Below, one piece after another: positions 1-58,762 of a DNA stretch of 64,000 nt (positions are counted from its first letter, which is position 1; every line of letters starts with the position of its first letter). The translations under genes were made by a program, and so were the position numbers. This stretch comes from a virus. The notes under the pieces were generated by a model that saw only the letters and a program-made list of their open reading frames with translations, searched no databases and had not been told where the DNA came from. The stretch is from positions 32,001-96,000 of the IMG/VR virus record IMGVR_UViG_3300025534_000004; one strand, given 5' to 3'.

Positions 1-517
1 CAATGGCATCGTTCAGGGTCAGATGCTTCTCCCAGCCGCGTCCGTGCTCGATCTGCTCCGATGACAGCAGGTCATAGGCGAAGCGGTGGACCATCATGAA
101 CCCCACCGGCTGTCTGCCATCGATGGTCTTGGTGCCGCCATTTTCGTCCGCTACCGTAATGCCCGGCGCGTGAACCAAGACGCGGCTCTCGTGGATGAGG
201 TCCAGCAGTTTCTCGATGCTCAGGTCGGCTTTCGATACCGCAAGATCATGAAGTTCGTTCTCGACGAGGTCCTCGCGGAAACCCGCGATGATGAAATCGG
301 TGTTCCAGTCCTCCGACCATCCCTCGATGCCGCCATAGTCGTTGTAGCGGCCGAAGATTGGCAGGGCGCGCGGCGACCAGACCGCATTCGGGCGGCAGTG
401 GCCCGCATGATTTTCGTGCTGACTGTTGGCGACGTGGGTAATCAGGATCAGCGCAACCGGATCATCGTAGTGGATCGGCAATTGCGTGACGCCGCAGGTC
501 TCGTTCCAGCTACCCAT
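1..517 (-). CDS. Conserved phage hypothetical protein, truncated by window start (MGSWNETCGVTQLPI...FGRYNDYGGIE)
   Basis: Manually translated open frame from ATG 517 with GGAGGAG RBS; no stop before base 1; not in ORF track. Confidence 0.65.
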   Translation of the reverse strand, partial: MGSWNETCGVTQLPIHYDDPVALILITHVANSQHENHAGHCRPNAVWSPRALPIFGRYNDYGGIEGWSEDWNTDFIIAGFREDLVENELHDLAVSKADLSIEKLLDLIHESRVLVHAPGITVADENGGTKTIDGRQPVGFMMVHRFAYDLLSSEQIEHGRGWEKHLTLNDAI

Positions 518-584
518 GGGGTGGGCTCCTCCAAATCCGTTCATGGAAAGGGCTTTGTGCAGGGCGTTCTATGCCCTTCGCGGT

Positions 585-1094
585 TCAACCGCAACGCCGG
601 ATCGGGCGGATGACCTTGCACTCGAAATTGGTGCAACCCATGAAGGGGCCATACTTGCCCTTGCGCTCGACCAGCAGGGCGCGGCAACCGGGGCAGTGGT
701 GGTGGGCATCCAGCACATATTCGCGGGCGGCCCTGATCCGGGCCTCAAGGTTCAGCAGGGCATTCTCGGTGCGAAGGACGCGCGGGAACCCCATCACCAC
801 CCGCGCCCGGCCATCTCGGTCGAGCATCTGGGTGTCGATCAGTTCGACGCGGATCGCGTCGGCGCCGCGCTCACGGGTGACGCCGTCCCGCTTGTCCACC
901 GACGAGAACACCACCGCCGCGAAGCGGCCGGGGTTCGGCCCGGCCTTGATCCGGCGGCCATAGACATGCTCCTCGAAATTGTTCTTGGTCAGAGCCTTGA
1001 AGCCCATCTCGGCCATGGCAGCGGCGAAGGTGTCGAAGCTGATGGGGCGGTAGCGGCTACCGGTGGTCTCGGCTTGCTTCCTGATCGCGCTCAT
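585..1094 (-). CDS. Hypothetical protein with C-terminal topoisomerase-type C4 zinc ribbon
   Basis: CPGCRALLVERKGKYGPFMGCTNFECK motif; GGAGG RBS; upstream TTGCAC-N16-TAAGCT promoter. Confidence 0.7.
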   Translation of the reverse strand: MSAIRKQAETTGSRYRPISFDTFAAAMAEMGFKALTKNNFEEHVYGRRIKAGPNPGRFAAVVFSSVDKRDGVTRERGADAIRVELIDTQMLDRDGRARVVMGFPRVLRTENALLNLEARIRAAREYVLDAHHHCPGCRALLVERKGKYGPFMGCTNFECKVIRPIRRCG

Positions 1095-1264
1095 GAAATG
1101 GCCTCCAATCTCCGACCAGCTTAGCTATTTTTCGGTTTGGTGCAACCTATTTTTTTGGTTACATCATCCTCTAACCAACAAAACGTCCAACCAAAACGAC
1201 GTTTTTTTGGTTGACGGGTGCCGGGATCGCCGTCAGATTGGCCTCACAGCGCAAGGAGCGGCCT

Positions 1265-1705
1265 ATGGACCTGATTGCCAGAATCGTTCGTCTCCACGCT
1301 TCCGTGGTCGATGCCGCCGCTCGCTACCACGCCATCTCCCCCACCGAGGGTGTCCCCGGCCACCTTGCTGCCAAGAATGCGATCAAGAACGAGGCGAACG
1401 TCATCGCGAGCAGGCTGTTCGGCCTGATGCTCGACGATAACCACGGCCTGCCGACCATCGTCGAAGCCAAGCCCCACGCCGTCGGCCCGATGGAAAACCG
1501 TCCGGCGACGCTCAGGGACAAAGCCGCCTCTGCGGCGGATGTCGAGGCGGCGTTACGGTCCATGCGGTTGCAGTTGGTGCCGCTTGCCATCTTCGCCAAC
1601 CTGCTCTCCGTCCACAAGGTGCCGCTCGACCATGGGCACCCCGCCTTCGCCCCTAAGTGGGACCGTTTCCGCGATACGTACAGGGAGGTCGTGCTTGCCT
1701 GCTGA
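1265..1705 (+). CDS. Hypothetical protein
   Basis: AAGGAG RBS before ATG 1265; GC3-rich codon usage. Confidence 0.6.
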   Translation: MDLIARIVRLHASVVDAAARYHAISPTEGVPGHLAAKNAIKNEANVIASRLFGLMLDDNHGLPTIVEAKPHAVGPMENRPATLRDKAASAADVEAALRSMRLQLVPLAIFANLLSVHKVPLDHGHPAFAPKWDRFRDTYREVVLAC

Positions 1706-1726
1706 CACCGGCCGCACCGGCTTGCG

Positions 1727-1762
1727 AAGGGCGTTCGGCTAAATAGGCCGAACGCCTTTTCT
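1727..1762 (+). terminator. Hairpin GCGTTCGGC-TAAATAG-GCCGAACGC plus T-tract; the loop holds a late promoter
   Basis: 9-bp perfect stem followed by CTTTTCT; TAAATA at 1740-1745. Confidence 0.6.
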
Positions 1763-1780
1763 CTTTGAGACTGCAAGCCG

Positions 1781-3322
1781 ATGAATGACATTCGCCGATT
1801 TCTGGACATCGTCAATGCGCCCCTGACCGAGGGTGTCGCCATTCACAATGTCCATCATCTTGCTGCCTTCGCGGTCGCCGTGGCCGAAGCCTATGACGCC
1901 GCGCCGCGCTTCGTCGAGAGCGACCGCAAGCCGTGGGACATCCTGAACCAGCACAACAACGAGGTACTATTCAAGCGCATCGAGGGCAGCGGCGTGCATG
2001 TCGCCTTTACGCCGAATGACCCATACGACGATGGCTCAGGCGATGTCGGCATGATGGTGCGCCGGATGCTCTGGGACATGGTGATGAACAACCGGCTGCT
2101 GATCTACAGCGGCCATTCCGACGATCATCCGGTGTTCTCGCCCAAGGACAACGTGATCTTCCGCACGGTGCATGACTACTACACCCATGGCAAGCTGCGC
2201 GCCGTGGTGAAGAAGCAGGCGCAAATGCTCGGCCTCCGTGCGGGCGCGCAGCCCAGCGATGAGGACCTCAAGCGCATTCTGCCGCATATCAATCTCACCA
2301 AGCACGGCAATGTCGGGCACGCCTTCACGATCCGTGGCGAACTGAACTCCTACAACACGCACCGCAAGCTGGCGCCTCCGGCCGCCGCCCCAGCCCTCTT
2401 TACCGAGATCGTCGGGCAGGTCTGCTACAACGTCTGCGTTGGAGACTTCCCGCAGCAGAAAGTCGTGATCCTGCGCGATTTCGATTTCGAGAATGTCGGC
2501 CTTGCCCATGACGGCACTCGCGGCGCCAAGCGCATGGACGAGGTGATGAAGCTCCTGAGCGAGGGCGCCGAAACCATCAAGAGCAGCATCAAGGCGAAGC
2601 CGGTCATCGTGGTAGCCGAGCTTCTCAGGACCGTTTCGCGCAACAACAACACCTTCAACACCATGGAGGGCACTGACCGGCCGCTCGGCCTGCTTCGCCA
2701 GCTTCATGAAATGGTGTCGCTGCCTGTCGAACTCGACGAGGCCAGCATGGCGCGCATCATCGGGCACCTTGAGAAGGGCACCCCCTTCATCCAGCTAAGC
2801 GCCGCCCGCGCGGGACTGTCGCAGCGCCAGATTCACGCCCGCAACAAGCAGGTGATCGCCGCGCTGCGCGCCTTCCATCTTGGTCCCATCGACACCTTCG
2901 GCGGCTGGGACGAGTACGATCCGGAGACCGGAAAGCGCAACCGTGTCCGCGAGGAAAGCCTGTTTGTGCCGCTGAGCCACAAGTCGGACCTGTCCGGCGA
3001 CGAGTTGTTGGAACTCGGCGAGTTCCTCGGCCGCCGCTTCAATCAGGATGCCATCATCTATGGCGACGGGGAGAACGTGTTTGTGGTCGATTACGTACAC
3101 AACAAGATCGACCACATCGGCACTTACGACACTGTGGACATGCACGAGATGCCGTTTGGCTGGACTGCCGTGAAGCAGGACAGGAAGTCCGATGGCAACA
3201 TGTGGGCTTGGACATTCCCCGACGAGGATCACGCCAAGAGGAAGGCAGCGCGCAAGGGCTCCTTTGCGGACCTCGACCGCAAGGCCAGCCGCCTGCCGCC
3301 CGATATGCCGGGCGCGCTTTGA
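1781..3322 (+). CDS. Two-domain putative virion internal protein (N-terminal FRxVHDxxxH zincin-like domain; C-terminal EESLFV...QDAI DUF3293-like domain)
   Basis: 513-aa ORF; late TAAATA promoter; leader MNDIRRFLDIVNAPLTE. Confidence 0.6.
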   Translation: MNDIRRFLDIVNAPLTEGVAIHNVHHLAAFAVAVAEAYDAAPRFVESDRKPWDILNQHNNEVLFKRIEGSGVHVAFTPNDPYDDGSGDVGMMVRRMLWDMVMNNRLLIYSGHSDDHPVFSPKDNVIFRTVHDYYTHGKLRAVVKKQAQMLGLRAGAQPSDEDLKRILPHINLTKHGNVGHAFTIRGELNSYNTHRKLAPPAAAPALFTEIVGQVCYNVCVGDFPQQKVVILRDFDFENVGLAHDGTRGAKRMDEVMKLLSEGAETIKSSIKAKPVIVVAELLRTVSRNNNTFNTMEGTDRPLGLLRQLHEMVSLPVELDEASMARIIGHLEKGTPFIQLSAARAGLSQRQIHARNKQVIAALRAFHLGPIDTFGGWDEYDPETGKRNRVREESLFVPLSHKSDLSGDELLELGEFLGRRFNQDAIIYGDGENVFVVDYVHNKIDHIGTYDTVDMHEMPFGWTAVKQDRKSDGNMWAWTFPDEDHAKRKAARKGSFADLDRKASRLPPDMPGAL

Positions 3323-31786: not shown

Positions 31787-32430
31787 TGCTGCCCGACCTC
31801 AACCTTCTCTTGGGGGGCCTTGGATCGCGCCCCTCAAAGCTGGTGCCGACCATCGTGCCGCTGCGTGGCCCGGCAGGCATGACGCGCCACATCTTCGACA
31901 ACACGTCCTTCGGCACCGCCAACAACGAGGACGACTGGTATCTCCGCGTCCCGTTGGCCGATACCTTCTACTACGATGGCGTCGGCTACAACGCCGTATA
32001 TGTCTCGACCAACGCCTACATCACCTTCGGCGCGGGCTCGGTGGTCTACTATGGCTTGCAGTACAACCAGCCTCCCGTCCCCACGCTGCACTTCGGCTCG
32101 GCCGACAACAGTTGCCAAACGCTCTGGTACGGTACGGTCGGCAGCGGCTCGAAACGCGCGACCTTTATCCGCTATGAGGGGACGGCTGCGATCCATCGCA
32201 ACACCAGCAGCCCGAACATCATCATCGAATGGTACTTCTATGCGGGATCGCTGATGACCTGCGTCATCGGCCAGCACGCGCGCCTGAGCGGCTTCTGGGG
32301 GTGGTCGAACGGTTCGACGGGCGTCTCCGGCATGGCTCCCGGCCCTGCCTTTTCCATGACGAGCTACGGCTACGAGAGTTTCGATCTGGGCTCCAACTGG
32401 TCCTATCGAAACGGCAGCGCCGATCCATAA
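31786..32430 (+). CDS. Tail fibre-associated (NIDO-like beta) protein
   Basis: TGATG coupling to the fibre gene; YVSTNAYITFG motif. Confidence 0.6.
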   Translation: MLPDLNLLLGGLGSRPSKLVPTIVPLRGPAGMTRHIFDNTSFGTANNEDDWYLRVPLADTFYYDGVGYNAVYVSTNAYITFGAGSVVYYGLQYNQPPVPTLHFGSADNSCQTLWYGTVGSGSKRATFIRYEGTAAIHRNTSSPNIIIEWYFYAGSLMTCVIGQHARLSGFWGWSNGSTGVSGMAPGPAFSMTSYGYESFDLGSNWSYRNGSADP

Positions 32431-53387: not shown

Positions 53388-53597
53388 TCACCGTCCCAGC
53401 GGTGCGCAATAACGGGAACCGTCGTCCATGCTGCCCAAGACGGCGCAGCGCGCCACGAAGGGATCGGTGCCGCGTTCGATGAGCCGTGCGACCGCCTCAT
53501 ATCGCGCACGGTCGCGCAGATCGGAGAACCCGCTACAGGTGATGATGGTCACCGCGACCAGCGCGGCGATGGCGAGCCAGAATTTCTTGGTATCCAT
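53388..53597 (-). CDS. Small membrane protein
   Basis: N-terminal TM helix; DPFVARCA tail. Confidence 0.6.
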   Translation of the reverse strand: MDTKKFWLAIAALVAVTIITCSGFSDLRDRARYEAVARLIERGTDPFVARCAVLGSMDDGSRYCAPLGR

Positions 53598-53670
53598 GAC
53601 GAATGCCTTCTCAAAATGGAGTTTTGAGAACCGACTTATCTCGGTTTGCGGCAGGCCGTCAAGGGAGGCT

Positions 53671-53747
53671 TGGATGCGGGCGGGGGACTTGCACCCCCAT
53701 CGTTGGGTTATGAGCCCAAGCTGGCACTACTTCCAGTCTAGCCCGCA
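53671..53747 (-). tRNA. tRNA-Met(CAT), atypical, initiator-like
   Basis: TTGGG-CTCATAA-CCCAA arm with three G-C pairs; CCA end; T-loop TGCAAGT; TAAATA at 53752-53757. Confidence 0.75.
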
Positions 53748-54288
53748 ACCCTATTTATCAGCGGGGCTTAATCCCGCGCTCGCACCGAATTAGGAGGCGC
53801 TGCGGCGTGAAACCGGCTTGGACTTTACCGACCGGGAGGTCCGGACCGCCCTCGCCTCGGACCGGTTACAGGCTTCCGTGGGTGTGCGGGACTATCTGAT
53901 GGCGCGGGCCAAGCTCAAGCAGCAGCGACGCGCTGCGTGAGGAAGAACATGGATGCATAGGCGACCCCGTTGTCGATCCTGTCGTCAGGAAGCAGGCCGA
54001 CGAGGATTGCCTTTCTTTCCATGCAGGTTTCGATGAGATCGTTCATACCGGCTCCCATCTTGAATTTGTACTATTTCATCGATCTCGCCACGGGCCGCTA
54101 CTGGTCCTCGAACGCTCAGGATTTCGTCGCGCCTGCTGATGCAACGCCGCTGACGTGGTCCGACCGCGTATACCGTGGTGCGCCCGCTGCTCGACGATCC
54201 GGACTTCCGATATACCATGCTGGCCGTCGATGACGCTTCCGGTCGCGCCGTTCTGCTTCGTCGGCTCAAAGGGCACTATCAGGTTAGA

Positions 54289-55854
54289 TCACGCAGCCAC
54301 TAGGGCTGGTGTCGTCCCTGATTTCACGGACGCCTCGCGGCGTTTGGATGACCTCACCACGGCCAGCGACACCCCACCGAAGTAAGGGTTCGTCATTCGT
54401 GGGTCGGCGGGGGCACCCCTGCTCCCGGTTCTGCCCGGCCGCATGGACCGGACACGTCGCTCCCCGAAGGCGCGCACGACTTCGGCAAGGACAGACGCCT
54501 TCGACTGGAACACCGAACCGATAGCCAGCGCACGGCGCTGGCCGATGTTGGGTGCCGCATTGAGGTCGGCGTGCTTGGTGTGGCCGCACCACAGGCACCG
54601 GAAGGTGCCTTGTGATGGGCGATTGCGCTTGTCCACGTAGCCGCAGGCGTTGCAGGTCTGCGACGAATAGGCCGGGTTGACCTCGGTGGACGTGATGCCG
54701 AACCGCTGTTCGATGTCGGCCAATTTCGACTGGATGACGGACCTGCCGCAGTTCCGCAGGATGGCGTTCAGGCGTCGGGACAGGTCCGGGTTGCGGAAGT
54801 CCAGCCGCTCAAGAACCAGTTCCTTCGGGCGCCCCTGCGCCACGAGGTGGTTCAGGACGCGGCCGACCTCGGTGCGGAGGAACCCGCGCACGTCCTCGAC
54901 CAGCGCCCGATACCGCTTGCTGTCGCGGGGCTTCTTCCCGGCCCGCTGCTGGCTGGCGGCGATCATCGTGAGCAGGGCGTCGTAGCGCCGCAGGCGCCTG
55001 AGCCAGCCCTGCCCGAGCAACTGGCCCTCGGAGGTGGCGAATAGTGTGGAGAGGCCGAAGTCGAGCGCGATGACGCCGTGACCATTGTAGTCAGCACGCG
55101 ACTTGGCGCACGCCTCGCCCATGTCGGTGACGACGCCGAAGGTCAGCCGCCCCTCGCGGTTCAGATTGACCTGCACGCCGTTGGTGACACGACCCGGCCG
55201 CTCCGCATGGTAGTCGTAGGTCAGCAGCGGGACGGCGATTTTCCGGCCCGGCTCCATGGTGGACAGGTTGACCCACCAGCCGACCTTGCCGCCCTGCGTG
55301 GCCTTGGTCGGGGCCGCGAGGCAGGCGGCCCGGTGGTCGAGGCGCATGGAGATGCGGGACAGGTCCGGCCTGCGGTGCCGCCCCATGACATGCCGCATGA
55401 TGGACCGCGCCAGTCGCCGCACGTCGCCGGGGATAATTTCCCCGGTGTCCTTCATGGCGATGTCCGCCCGGAGGAACCACGCTCCCATGCGGTTCACGAC
55501 GTGGAGCATGTGCTTGGTGTCGGGCGGCAGGGTGCTCCGGTTCACCGCGTCGCGGAATTCGTTGGCGCGGTTGCTGATCCAGCCCTGCAACTGGCCGACG
55601 ACCTGATACCGGCACATCTGGACCCGGTTCGCCGCGCCGATGACGGCGGCGAAGGTCGTCTTGTCCACGTCGTGGTTCTTGTTGAACCGGCCCGTCTCGA
55701 AGAACAGCCGCCACTGCTCGCGCCCTAGCAACACCGCGCCCCGGCGATACGCCGCCAGCAGGTCCAGCACCTTCGCCCGCTTACCCGCCGTCAAGTTCGA
55801 CGGCAGGAGGTCGGTGCGGTGGACCGGCGGGTGTTCGGGGCGCTTGCGTGCCAT
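54289..55854 (-). CDS. tnpB: TnpB/Cas12f-like RuvC nuclease (521 aa)
   Basis: RuvC-I IALDFG, RuvC-II LVLERL, VNPAYSSQTCNACG...FRCLWCG zinc ribbon, RuvC-III HADLNAAPNI. Confidence 0.85.
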   Translation of the reverse strand: MARKRPEHPPVHRTDLLPSNLTAGKRAKVLDLLAAYRRGAVLLGREQWRLFFETGRFNKNHDVDKTTFAAVIGAANRVQMCRYQVVGQLQGWISNRANEFRDAVNRSTLPPDTKHMLHVVNRMGAWFLRADIAMKDTGEIIPGDVRRLARSIMRHVMGRHRRPDLSRISMRLDHRAACLAAPTKATQGGKVGWWVNLSTMEPGRKIAVPLLTYDYHAERPGRVTNGVQVNLNREGRLTFGVVTDMGEACAKSRADYNGHGVIALDFGLSTLFATSEGQLLGQGWLRRLRRYDALLTMIAASQQRAGKKPRDSKRYRALVEDVRGFLRTEVGRVLNHLVAQGRPKELVLERLDFRNPDLSRRLNAILRNCGRSVIQSKLADIEQRFGITSTEVNPAYSSQTCNACGYVDKRNRPSQGTFRCLWCGHTKHADLNAAPNIGQRRALAIGSVFQSKASVLAEVVRAFGERRVRSMRPGRTGSRGAPADPRMTNPYFGGVSLAVVRSSKRREASVKSGTTPALVAA

Positions 55855-56819
55855 CAGGCCGCTTTCGCCGTGACGAAGCCGTAGGACAGCAACCGCCCTT
55901 CGCCGTTGCGGACCATCTGCGTCATCCGGTCGAGGCAGGCGTCACCCTTGCGGTTCCAGCGGAAGGTGGCCTCGCTGGCATACCTGCCGAGGTGCTTGAC
56001 GCTGATCTGGTGCCAGACGCCGATGACGGCGCGGCGCATGAAGCCGTTGAAGGATTCGACCCGGTTGACGTGAACCCGGTGCCCTGTCGCCTCATCGGTG
56101 CGGGCATACTCGCGGTCGGAGTGATTGACCGAGAGGTGAGGCTGGTTCTTGCCGATGTGCTTGTAGGCCGGGAGGCCGTCCGTCATCACCGTGGCCTTCG
56201 GGTCCACCACCCCGTCCAGTGCCTCAGAAATCGCGGCCTTGCCGTGCGTCGGGATGACCTTCGCCACCACATCTCCGCCACGTTCGGCGGCCACGAGAAC
56301 GAGCGGGCGCTTGGTGCCCCGTCCTTTCGGGTTGGCGGGCGGCGGCTCGCTGTCGTCGTGGTCACGGGACGGCTTGGCCCGCTTCCGGGGCGGCGCACCC
56401 GCATACATCTCGTCAATCTCGACCACCCCGGCGAGAATGGGATTGGCTTCGGCCATCATTGCCCGGATGCGGTGCCCGAGGTGCCATGCGGTCGGGTATG
56501 AGACGCCCAACATCTCGCCCAACTTGACCGCGCTGATACCCTTGCTGGATGCCACAATCAGGTAGAACGCCTGCAACCATGTCAGCAGGGGCAAATGCGT
56601 CCGGTGCATCGGCGTCCCCGCCGTGACCGAGAAGTGCTTCCGGCAACCCGAGCAGCACCAGACCCGCTTCGTCCCGATCCACCACGCCTTGCCGACGAGG
56701 CCGCAGTGGTAGCACTCAGGGCCGTTCGGCCACCGGGCGTGCTCGAACCACGCCCGAGCGGCGTCCTCGTCGGGGAACATGGCGTTGAAGGCACGGAGGG
56801 ACATGGACTGCTGACTCAC
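55854..56819 (-). CDS. IS1595-family (ISXO2-like) DDE transposase
   Basis: RWPNGPECYHCG...CSGCRKHFSVTAGT zinc ribbon; VEIDEMY, MTDG, NRVESF, HQISVKHL..Y..E..FRWN. Confidence 0.92.
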   Translation of the reverse strand: MSQQSMSLRAFNAMFPDEDAARAWFEHARWPNGPECYHCGLVGKAWWIGTKRVWCCSGCRKHFSVTAGTPMHRTHLPLLTWLQAFYLIVASSKGISAVKLGEMLGVSYPTAWHLGHRIRAMMAEANPILAGVVEIDEMYAGAPPRKRAKPSRDHDDSEPPPANPKGRGTKRPLVLVAAERGGDVVAKVIPTHGKAAISEALDGVVDPKATVMTDGLPAYKHIGKNQPHLSVNHSDREYARTDEATGHRVHVNRVESFNGFMRRAVIGVWHQISVKHLGRYASEATFRWNRKGDACLDRMTQMVRNGEGRLLSYGFVTAKAA

Positions 56820-56897
56820 GTTGCGACACTACATCTATTCAGCGTGTTCGTCAACCTGATAGGTCCGGGCTCAAATATCTGATCGGCATTCAGCGAA

Positions 56898-57215
56898 GTG
56901 CCCGTCACGCCGGAGATGCTCATCGAGGCTCTCCGCCCGCACGACGCGGTGTTGTGGTCCCATCTGGCGCTGGTTGATCATAAGGATGTCGTGGTGTCCG
57001 GGCGTCCGGTCAGGGATTTCGATCCCGAGGGCTGTGCCGAGCGTCTTTCGCGGATCGGAGTCTCGCCCGCGAATTACCGGATCGTCCCGCTCGGCAGTCT
57101 CCTGCTCAATGAGGAAGGCGCAGCGATGGTGATGCTCGCCGGAGGGAAGGCCGTCGGCCTCGACGCCGCCCGCGCTATCGCGGCAGAATGCAGTTTCGTA
57201 GAACTTCTTTCTTGA
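56898..57215 (+). CDS. Hypothetical protein, possibly the 3' remnant of a gene hit by the IS
   Basis: No clear RBS; begins just after the TSD. Confidence 0.4.
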   Translation: MPVTPEMLIEALRPHDAVLWSHLALVDHKDVVVSGRPVRDFDPEGCAERLSRIGVSPANYRIVPLGSLLLNEEGAAMVMLAGGKAVGLDAARAIAAECSFVELLS

Positions 57216-57248
57216 CGTTCATCGCTCCTATGGCAGAGTACGGCCAGA

Positions 57249-57851
57249 ATGCGATTTCAGGAGCCGTCGATGCCGCAGGTCCGGATGTGGAAGTGCCCCA
57301 AGACGGGCAAGCTGTTCGAGGACCTCGACGAATACCGTCAGCATCTCCGCGAGGTCGCGAGCGAGCGGTTCATGCGCCGGAAGGCCGTTGATTTCGTGCG
57401 GGCCGCCACCAGCGAGCTTCGGTGCCAGTCCAGCTTCGAGGACATCGCCGAGTGGATCGTCGCCAACAGCACCATGCTGGCGGTACGGGCTGCCTATCAT
57501 AATGCCATCGGGTGGCGGCAGGGCGAGCCGAACCTGATCCCGCCCTTTTTCTTCATCCGGCACGTCGAGTTCAAGGACATGGAGTGGCGTGAGGCCATCC
57601 GCCATAACAACCACGCTCCGCTCGGCCAGCCGACAGACCGGGATGTGGCCTCATCAGGATGGTATGGACGGTTGATCTTCCGGGCCAAGGGCGACCATTA
57701 CTGCATTACGAGGGATTTGTTCGCGGAGACCGGCATCAACCTCTGCAACGGGGTGGGCGGCGACGGGCGCTACCGATACCAAGTGATCCTGTTCGATGAG
57801 GATTTCCCGAACCTCTCGGTGATGTCCCGCCTGCGGCAGGAGGCGGCCTAA
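57249..57851 (+). CDS. Conserved phage hypothetical protein
   Basis: WKCPKTGKLF...Y..HL...H.AP...GWYGR motif. Confidence 0.7.
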   Translation: MRFQEPSMPQVRMWKCPKTGKLFEDLDEYRQHLREVASERFMRRKAVDFVRAATSELRCQSSFEDIAEWIVANSTMLAVRAAYHNAIGWRQGEPNLIPPFFFIRHVEFKDMEWREAIRHNNHAPLGQPTDRDVASSGWYGRLIFRAKGDHYCITRDLFAETGINLCNGVGGDGRYRYQVILFDEDFPNLSVMSRLRQEAA

Positions 57852-57907
57852 CCCGGCGGGTGCAGCCCCGGTGCTAAATATCCAAGGTCCATGCCGGGAT
57901 TGTGCCG

Positions 57908-58762
57908 ATGCTTCTTAACGAGATGTTCCTGTCCGAGGCTCCCATCGAGGACTTCACCCTGCTCGGGAATTGGGAGAGGTCCTCCTCTTTCCGCCACGAG
58001 CAGGACCGCAAACTCCTGACGAATCCGAAGGCGCAGGCCAAGATCATCCACAAGTGGCGCAACACCGAAGTGCCCTTCAACATGTACTTCGTGAACAGCC
58101 CCGAAGCCAACCGACATACGGAGATCGGTGAGGTGACGCCGGAGTGGCTTGCGGAGAACATGCCCAAGACCTTCCCGGAGTTGAAGCTGCGCGACGACGC
58201 GGTGAACATCATCTTTACGAACAACAAGGGTGATGAGCGCGCGCCAATGACGGCTTGGATCATCGCCCATCGCCTTGGACACGCGGTGTCACGCTGGCAG
58301 CGGAATGCCCGCTACCGGCAGGTGCCGGAGTTCACGGAAGCCCGCAGTGCGGTATTTCGCGTTACCTCCGAGATTCTCCGCGATGCCTATGGCTGCCGGG
58401 GAGTGCCGGGGAGCGAGGCCGAGCATCTCCGTACGCAGGGTCCTGCCTACCGTGAAAACGACAGGCTGCTGACCGGTTTCTACGAGGCCATCGGCACATT
58501 CCGCTCCGCGCGCGAGCGCAATATCCGCAACGAGTTCGAGTTCCTGCTGGAGTGCTTGGCTCAGTACATCACGACCGGCAAGGTGCGCTTCAACCCGCTG
58601 CCGGACCATTTCCGGTGCGGACGACGCCTCATCGACCTGACGCAGACCGGACACATTGAGCGGGAGGATTTCGACCGGCTGCTTGCGGGCCTTGCCAATG
58701 AACTGAACTACTGGTTCCGCGACCTTCTTCAAGCCTGCGTCGGCCGCATTTTCGTCATGTGA
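57908..58762 (+). CDS. Putative virion internal protein with degenerate zincin motif (AHRLGH)
   Basis: Leader MLLNEMFLSE; MTAWIIAHRLGH...E...AQY..TG; TAAATA at 57875. Confidence 0.7.
   Translation: MLLNEMFLSEAPIEDFTLLGNWERSSSFRHEQDRKLLTNPKAQAKIIHKWRNTEVPFNMYFVNSPEANRHTEIGEVTPEWLAENMPKTFPELKLRDDAVNIIFTNNKGDERAPMTAWIIAHRLGHAVSRWQRNARYRQVPEFTEARSAVFRVTSEILRDAYGCRGVPGSEAEHLRTQGPAYRENDRLLTGFYEAIGTFRSARERNIRNEFEFLLECLAQYITTGKVRFNPLPDHFRCGRRLIDLTQTGHIEREDFDRLLAGLANELNYWFRDLLQACVGRIFVM

Follow-up and report, generated by a model that had tools for sequence, protein, structure and literature searches.

A TnpB-type nuclease gene and a predicted omegaRNA-like right end in an IS1595-family insertion sequence from a phage genome

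We analysed a 64,000-nucleotide stretch of viral DNA (here called the window; positions 32,001 to 96,000 of the 147.7-kb IMG/VR virus record IMGVR_UViG_3300025534_000004), which contains a 2597-bp element composed of an IS1595-type transposase gene and a tnpB-like gene. The element occupies positions 54271-56867 of the window and is the only copy in the whole record. Its inverted ends are imperfect, GGGCACTATCAGGTT at 54271-54285 and CGGACCTATCAGGTT, read as the reverse complement, at 56853-56867, and a perfect 8-bp direct repeat, GGCTCAAA, brackets it at 54263-54270 and 56868-56875. Two minus-strand genes fill the element, one for a transposase of 321 amino acids (55854-56819) and one for a TnpB-like protein of 521 amino acids (54289-55854); the stop codon of the first and the start codon of the second overlap as TGATG at 55852-55856. 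A previous reading of the DNA, made from the sequence alone (the sequence-only reading), had described a 2597-bp element with these ends and this duplication, holding exactly two overlapping genes of which the first encodes an IS1595 transposase, and both the sequence and the Pfam and NCBIfam searches described below bear this out. The features of the element and its borders are listed here, gene sense being that of the minus strand.

54251-54270, minus strand: predicted guide region, made up of the duplication copy at 54263-54270 and about 12 nucleotides of phage flank, as expected from TnpB architecture
54263-54270: target-site duplication GGCTCAAA at the tnpB end, identical to 56868-56875
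54271-54285: inverted repeat at the tnpB end, in gene sense ...AACCTGATAGTGCCC; the end GATAGnnCC[C/T] is kept in 55 related loci
54271-54556, minus strand: predicted structured RNA of about 286 nucleotides, resembling an omegaRNA scaffold and overlapping the last 90 or so codons of tnpB (covariation in a 44-sequence alignment)
54289-55854, minus strand: tnpB, encoding a 521-amino-acid RuvC nuclease with a predicted TnpB/Cas12f fold (domains, conservation, AlphaFold2 and Foldseek)
55852-55856, minus strand: TGATG stop/start overlap of the transposase gene and tnpB, suggesting translational coupling; kept in related loci, including transposase-deleted forms
55854-56819, minus strand: IS1595-family DDE transposase, 321 amino acids from a GTG start, an ATG start at 56804 being also possible (Pfam, NCBIfam)
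56826-56854, minus strand: possible promoter, TTGACG-17 nucleotides-TAGTGT, read from the sequence, with its -35 hexamer partly inside the inverted repeat
56853-56867: inverted repeat at the transposase end, in gene sense CGGACCTATCAGGTT
56868-56875: target-site duplication GGCTCAAA at the transposase end, the second copy
56876-56878, minus strand: candidate transposon-associated motif (TAM), flank motif 5'-ATA (family consensus [A/G/T]TA), directly 5' of the duplication in gene sense

Within the window, the end motif is matched without any mismatch by the two ends of the element alone, and ends of this type bound 21 independent copies elsewhere that have different 8-bp duplications; the ends are therefore beyond chance. 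Eight matches with two mismatches to the motif, GGNNCTATCAGGTT, were also present in the window (7091, 25255, 39554, 44107, 46331, 49652, 50493 and 57531), where about 2.5 matches in total would be expected by chance. None of the eight was paired into an element, and they are probably chance occurrences in GC-rich DNA. Promoter-like spacing similar to that at 56826-56854, with TTGAC or TTGCC followed by TAGATT or TATAGT, recurs in the left ends of related loci. A scan of the element for consensus promoters and terminators called no site, the promoter-like TTGACG-TAGTGT included.

Terminal inverted repeats together with an 8-bp target duplication, the latter found in 21 copies, place the element in the IS1595 family. 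Neither of its two genes encodes a Y1 or serine recombinase, and no space is left for a further gene or array; the sequence-only reading had noted correctly that no such enzyme, IS605-type end or CRISPR array lies inside. Elements of the IS200/IS605 and IS607 types have a Y1 HUH or a serine TnpA and asymmetric ends without duplication, whereas inverted repeats and a duplication are present here. The element is also distinct from CRISPR-associated transposons of the Cas12k type, since the catalytic triad of its nuclease is intact, and Tn7-type TnsB, TnsC and TniQ and a CRISPR array are absent from its 2.6 kb.

The transposase matched the Pfam domains DDE_Tnp_IS1595 (PF12762, E = 1.6e-32) and Zn_ribbon_IS1595 (PF12760, E = 5e-9), and scored 162.7 bits against NCBIfam NF033547, for which the cut-off is 75. 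It is thus a DDE transposase of the IS1595/ISXO2 type with an N-terminal zinc ribbon. The 521-amino-acid protein matched the Cas12f1-like TNB domain (PF07282, E = 7.2e-15) above the cut-off, and has a zinc finger between RuvC-II and RuvC-III. The three RuvC catalytic acids named in the sequence-only reading, D265 in ALDFG, E349 in LERLDF and D430 in HADLNAA, proved to be invariant or at least 90% conserved both among 18 close homologues and in a broader set of 42 proteins. The four cysteines of the CxxC...CxxC zinc finger, which that reading had called a zinc ribbon, are invariant across the close homologues and conserved in the broader set as well.

A profile of the family matched solved Cas12f and TnpB chains. 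The AlphaFold2 model of the protein had a mean predicted local distance difference test score (pLDDT) of 86.7, and when compared by Foldseek over its full length it retrieved Cas12f, the ISFba1 TnpB (8iaz), the ISDra2 TnpB (8h1j) and mimivirus Fanzor2 (9b0l), all with probability 1.00 and with E values down to 4e-15. The model has the overall WED-REC-RuvC-TNB fold; its tail, residues 469-521, is predicted to be disordered (469-480 and 497-521 in particular). On sequence and modelled structure, the protein is a TnpB-type nuclease with a predicted intact active site. Public annotation hides such TnpBs under the name 'zinc ribbon domain-containing protein'. A related pair on Salipiger profundus plasmid pTPRO6 (1163-3811 of locus L259), for example, is labelled 'IS1595 family transposase' and 'zinc ribbon domain-containing protein' in RefSeq.

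We gathered 240 related loci from genomes, metagenomes and viral contigs. Linkage was counted over the 59 loci that had a TnpB N-terminus (at least 45% identity) and sufficient upstream DNA. In 47 of these an IS1595 transposase gene or its remnant lay directly upstream of tnpB, and several of the other 12 are internal deletions of the transposase. Deletion forms of 1.66 kb keep both ends of the element and tnpB. After the left inverted repeat they have a mini-open reading frame, which joins the first transposase codons to the last ones and still overlaps tnpB as TGATG, and perfect 8-bp duplications flank them. More than 120 clusters of proteins were found at 56-94% identity, many of them encoded on contigs about as long as the element itself (2.4-2.7 kb); an exhaustive search yielded 365 representatives (50% identity clusters) at E ≤ 1e-30, wider IS607-type relatives included. 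Hosts include Azospirillum, Acidiphilium, Acidocella, Parvibaculum, Indioceanicola, Novosphingobium, Ramlibacter, Methylacidimicrobium and a metagenome-assembled genome (MAG) of the Trueperaceae.

At least seven copies were present at different sites in one Verrucomicrobia genome, and 21 non-redundant copies with clean 8-bp duplications were recovered, each with a duplication of its own. In 301 genomes of one host's order, transposase matches split into those of at least 73% and those of at most 52% identity; matches of 73-80% were confined to two genomes (G003 and G004), both of which have TnpB-linked copies, and the 73% match has an internal stop. Judged from these comparisons of sequence, the IS1595 transposase gene and tnpB transpose as one unit, and the element is mobile and widespread. 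The sequence-only reading had proposed just this, a DDE element with inverted repeats and target duplications that carries TnpB and moves with it as a unit, here into a phage. The linkage, the copies with their own duplications and the element-sized contigs all agree with it, and the same ends with different 8-bp duplications, which it had suggested seeking, were found in the 21 copies.

Some related loci depart from the simple pattern. One alphaproteobacterial MAG has two copies (L021 and L022), one of them with unmatched duplications, ACGCCGTC and AGCTTTTT, as expected from recombination between copies. A 1.66-kb transposase-less copy (L089, about 1390-3100) appears, when read by eye, to lie in the anticodon-loop region of a tRNA-like gene with anticodon GTT, the 3' half of which seems to resume past the right-hand duplication ATCGGATG. 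Hot-spring-type metagenome contigs (L093-L097 and L106) have an AT-rich tnpB of 67-71% identity, preceded by an AT-rich upstream region and a remnant mini-open reading frame like that of the deletion forms; a search with the end motif did not find their inverted repeats.

Alignment of the last 300 nucleotides of 44 elements gave a consensus RNA structure of 86 pairs, which starts about 286 nucleotides from the element end (54556 in the window) and closes at the last bases of the element. Over the 86 pairs, 87.9% of cells were paired, compared with 34-43% when the partners were slid by 1-3 columns. Double-sided changes were seen in 45 pairs, and the covariation score was 0.282, compared with 0.087 or less in the slid controls; none of 500 shuffles reached the observed values. 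The structure includes a hairpin at 54295-54307, and a covarying helix joins 54317-54320 to 54280-54283, inside the inverted repeat. Folding of the single sequence gave z = -2.25 for the region, and an Rfam scan of the element at E values up to 1 returned no family.

The RNA region overlaps codons of the predicted disordered TnpB tail, and the tnpB stop lies 18 nucleotides from the element end. In silico, therefore, a structured RNA spans the tnpB 3' end and stops at the transposon boundary; this predicted layout is that of a TnpB omegaRNA scaffold. Since the scaffold would end at the element boundary, and the element has no terminator-like site, the predicted guide consists of the 8-bp duplication followed by flanking DNA. 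The same layout bears on the possibility of a nested insertion. According to the sequence-only reading, homologues lacking IS1595 linkage, or hidden IS605/IS1341 ends around tnpB, would have spoken against a joint element. Close homologues turned out to be either linked to the transposase or alone within the same ends, and no hidden IS605 or IS607 ends fit around tnpB, because the two genes overlap and tnpB stops 18 nucleotides from the end, inside RNA that pairs with the inverted repeat.

The 21 non-redundant copies with clean duplications were oriented in gene sense, so that the transposase end is on the left and the tnpB end on the right. Immediately before the left-hand duplication, T was found at position -2 and A at position -1 in all 21 copies; position -3 was A, G or T in all of them and never C. 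The first duplicated base was A or T, again in 21 of 21. No bias was seen in the right flank beyond the duplication, or at the mirrored position inside the duplication. In the window the motif is ATA, at 56878-56876 on the minus strand. In an empty site the motif would abut the 5' side of the presumed guide match, which is where TnpB and Cas12 enzymes read their motif, and in the occupied site the same position is held by the element end, ...GCCC.

For comparison we used two multi-copy sets of TnpB-less IS1595 elements, of six and five copies, with transposases only about 33% identical to that of the window. The first, a 1080-bp element with the near-identical end core CCTATCCGGTTGAC, had TA at the left in three of six copies and at the mirrored right position in two of six, and its first duplicated base was A or T in one of six. 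Fisher's exact test of TnpB-carrying against TnpB-less copies gave p = 0.007 for TA and 7e-5 for the first duplicated base. The second set, which has different ends, had TA in one of five copies. Automated end-finding on 32 other single-copy TnpB-less IS1595 loci yielded almost nothing. On these counts, a link between the strict TA motif and TnpB is suggestive, not decisive.

The next-closest TnpBs are 30-40% identical, about 490 amino acids long, and share the same N-terminal motif; a gene for a serine recombinase of about 200 amino acids overlaps their start, as in IS607 elements. A maximum-likelihood tree of 82 proteins, which was midpoint-rooted and has some long branches, placed all IS1595-linked TnpBs in one clade of 34 rows, with a Shimodaira-Hasegawa-like approximate likelihood ratio test (SH-aLRT) value of 100 and no recombinase-linked members. 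The neighbouring clades are made up mostly of recombinase-linked, IS607-type proteins. The pairing of IS1595 transposase and TnpB persists down to at least 47% TnpB identity (L114). The simplest reading of this tree is that an IS1595 element captured an IS607-type tnpB once, and that the transposase and TnpB then diverged together over a long time.

Two further loci have other pairings. In one (L260; genome G017, contig 48, positions 2-2140, minus strand), an IS1595 transposase 52% identical to that of the window is followed by a different, classical TnpB with the Pfam domains OrfB_IS605 and TNB, which suggests that IS1595 elements have gained TnpB more than once. A 695-amino-acid transposase-TnpB fusion at this locus was rejected, because its middle third, rich in Arg, Pro and Gly, comes from GC-rich DNA with masked letters that is read out of frame. 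In the other (L145), a TnpB relative of about 36% identity (1477-2976) lies right behind a fragment of a DDE_Tnp_1 (IS4/IS5-type) transposase (994-1476) and groups in the tree with a serine-recombinase-linked protein. It may be one of the published DDE-linked TnpB branches.

The account that we consider probable is that the element is an autonomous IS1595 insertion sequence whose integral cargo, TnpB with its guide-RNA scaffold, provides putative RNA-guided retention or homing. Ordinary DDE transposition would move the whole two-gene unit. Transcription would then run on into the flank, so that the guide of each copy would consist of its own duplication and right-flank sequence. TnpB with this guide RNA would cut only the element-free copy of the same site, in which the guide match is preceded by 5'-[A/G/T]TA; with the motif position of the occupied site taken by ...GCCC, the element would spare itself. 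An element-bearing copy would serve as the template when the cut empty site, or a resealed donor, is repaired, and the element would thereby be restored or spread, for example between co-infecting phage genomes. The retention or homing role of IS605 TnpB would in this way be carried over to a cut-and-paste DDE element, akin to that of Fanzor in eukaryotic transposons.

Several points weigh against this proposal. Cut-and-paste transposition by a DDE enzyme in any case leaves a double-strand break in the donor, which makes it harder to see than for IS605 what a further nuclease would contribute (PMC13565253). An Acidiphilium-type copy (L018) was present in four transcriptome runs, as a single 8957-nucleotide contig in three and as short pieces in the fourth, and these RNA-seq contigs show neither a small RNA nor transcription. 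An exact-junction search of viral contigs for the empty-site allele gave no match. Against NCBIfam NF040570 (TnpB) the 521-amino-acid protein scored 70 bits, under the cut-off of 100, and only residues 222-440 were matched; its N-terminal half is therefore divergent in sequence. Finally, TA could be the transposase's own target choice; the comparison element is represented by only six copies, and its transposase is only about 33% identical.

This last point is the main rival to the favoured reading. The one-sided TA would be a target preference of this transposase lineage, and TnpB would still be an RNA-guided nuclease, with a recognition motif that is another one or is only secondarily matched; the flank motif would then carry no information on what TnpB does. 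The TnpB-less IS1595 element with a similar end core does have a weak TA tendency (3/6 left, 2/6 right), and in IS605 elements the transposase target and the TnpB motif coincide (PMC13565253), so both readings are compatible. However, DDE enzymes acting on two similar ends are normally symmetric, while the mirrored right position is unbiased in 21 sites, and the strict form of TA was seen only in the TnpB-carrying lineage. We regard a purely transposase-set TA as unlikely.

TnpB might instead take part in insertion. It seems improbable that TnpB is an asymmetric insertion factor that docks the IS1595 transposase, placing the left end always 8 bp from the motif, and that the same motif later licenses homing; if true, such docking would link an RNA-guided nuclease mechanistically to a DDE transposase in a minimal system of two genes. 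It is likewise improbable, in our view, that TnpB bound at the TA motif chooses the site by positioning the transposase, with a staggered cut that starts right after the motif, in one orientation. The strict position and orientation of TA in 21 of 21 copies would fit this, as would the tight operon coupling of the two genes and their deep shared divergence, which reaches down to about 47% TnpB identity. Recruitment of a DDE transposase by a catalytically intact TnpB is, however, without precedent, adaptor genes are absent from the element, and a guide copied from the flank of the present insertion has no means of specifying a new one; TA sites are occupied by transposase-deleted forms as well, which any model explains. 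The sequence-only reading had spoken of a candidate RNA-guided transposon system. That a DDE unit carries TnpB stands, but nothing found shows RNA-guided insertion.

That TnpB is a repurposed regulator of the TldR type, or an inert hitch-hiker from a single nested insertion, is very unlikely: TnpB is indeed dispensable for IS605 transposition (PMC13565253), and there are domesticated TnpBs (PMC10705468), but here the catalytic triad is conserved across the clade, tnpB is kept where the transposase is deleted, the proteins form one clade with a long co-divergence, the RNA structure is integrated with the inverted repeat, and no IS607 or IS605 ends fit around the gene.

At the locus itself, the G+C content is 66-70% in the element and about 60% in the phage flanks, and the best explanation is that the element recently inserted into a giant phage. 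The phage open reading frames that flank the insertion, 53428-54233 and 56898-58762, have no PHROG match, and a downstream phage protein of 105 amino acids has no relatives in the viral contig collection. A 65-amino-acid open reading frame across the rebuilt junction was considered as the interrupted gene and judged unconvincing.

TnpBs carried by DDE transposons are already known as a kind. Altae-Tran et al. (2023, PNAS; PMC10691335) describe in their main text six DDE-associated TnpB branches (DDE-1 to DDE-6), all with inverted terminal repeats, together with solo TnpBs that have the same ends; the tnpB 3' ends lie at most 250 bp from the transposon end. The only transposase family that this text names is IS630. 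A 2026 review (PMC13565253) lists ISL2, IS630 and IS1031, and describes such pairings as rare in prokaryotes and mechanistically unexplored. The statement of the sequence-only reading that prokaryotic TnpB normally partners Y1 or serine enzymes is thus out of date, and it overrated the novelty of the element, because DDE-associated branches had already been published. IS1595 is unnamed in the text of PMC10691335, its supplement aside, and in PMC13565253, and no paper retrieved by a literature search as mentioning both IS1595 and TnpB concerns their pairing. The partnership with IS1595 therefore appears not to have been named in print. Within a distinct lineage of long TnpBs, the element represents the autonomous form, with both genes.

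What an RNA-guided nuclease gives a cut-and-paste DDE transposon, and why the pairing is rare in prokaryotes, are posed as open questions in PMC13565253. The IS1595-TnpB family offers a compact system for them, widespread in bacteria and phages, with two genes, defined ends and a defined RNA, and it makes a sharp prediction: a 5'-[A/G/T]TA motif and a guide that starts with the target duplication. It could serve as a bacterial model for how RNA-guided nucleases may help a DDE transposon to persist, and would add a nuclease of about 470 folded amino acids, with a very short candidate motif, to the possible editing enzymes. If the reading of a single capture is true, the taking of an IS607-type TnpB by a prokaryotic DDE element parallels the origin of some Fanzors.

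The element shares with the DDE-TnpB branches of PMC10691335 a tnpB beside a DDE transposase gene within inverted terminal repeats, a tnpB 3' end near the transposon end (18 nucleotides here, at most 250 bp there), and transposase-less copies with the same ends, for which mobilisation in trans is therefore possible. Neither the RNA covariation found here nor a motif on one side only, 8 bp from the end, appears in the main texts of PMC10691335 and PMC13565253. IS607 TnpB elements contain the closest TnpB relatives outside the clade; in them too the recombinase gene overlaps the start of tnpB and the RNA overlaps its 3' end. IS607, however, has a serine recombinase, no inverted repeats and no duplication, whereas the present element has a DDE enzyme and inverted repeats, and its duplication starts the presumed guide.

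The Fanzors are eukaryotic TnpB homologues in cut-and-paste DNA transposons, and among them the Fanzor2* proteins captured from IS607 (PMC10711439) are likewise cases of an IS607-type nuclease taken by an inverted-repeat transposon that makes target duplications. As in those systems, the predicted RNA continues through the inverted repeat, and the duplication would be part of the logic of RNA and target (PMC10711439); the predicted fold matches Fanzor2 (9b0l). Unlike Fanzor, the element is prokaryotic and its catalytic site is canonical, not rearranged; the duplication is 8 bp long and variable, and therefore cannot itself be a fixed motif. The proposed mechanism resembles that of IS200/IS605 TnpB (ISDra2), with a motif 5' of the empty site, a guide from the flank 3' of the right end and protection of the occupied site, and the predicted fold matches 8h1j. 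IS605 elements differ in that they use a Y1 HUH transposase with scarless single-strand excision, and have neither inverted repeats nor a duplication.

Within the ISfinder classification, the IS1595 family includes members with passenger genes, and elements of the ISNwi1-like type have ends of the form GGnn.TAT and 8-bp duplications. The element described here agrees with these relatives in its transposase domains, its type of end and its 8-bp duplication, and differs in that its passenger is a putative RNA-guided nuclease, whose predicted structured RNA forms part of the right end.

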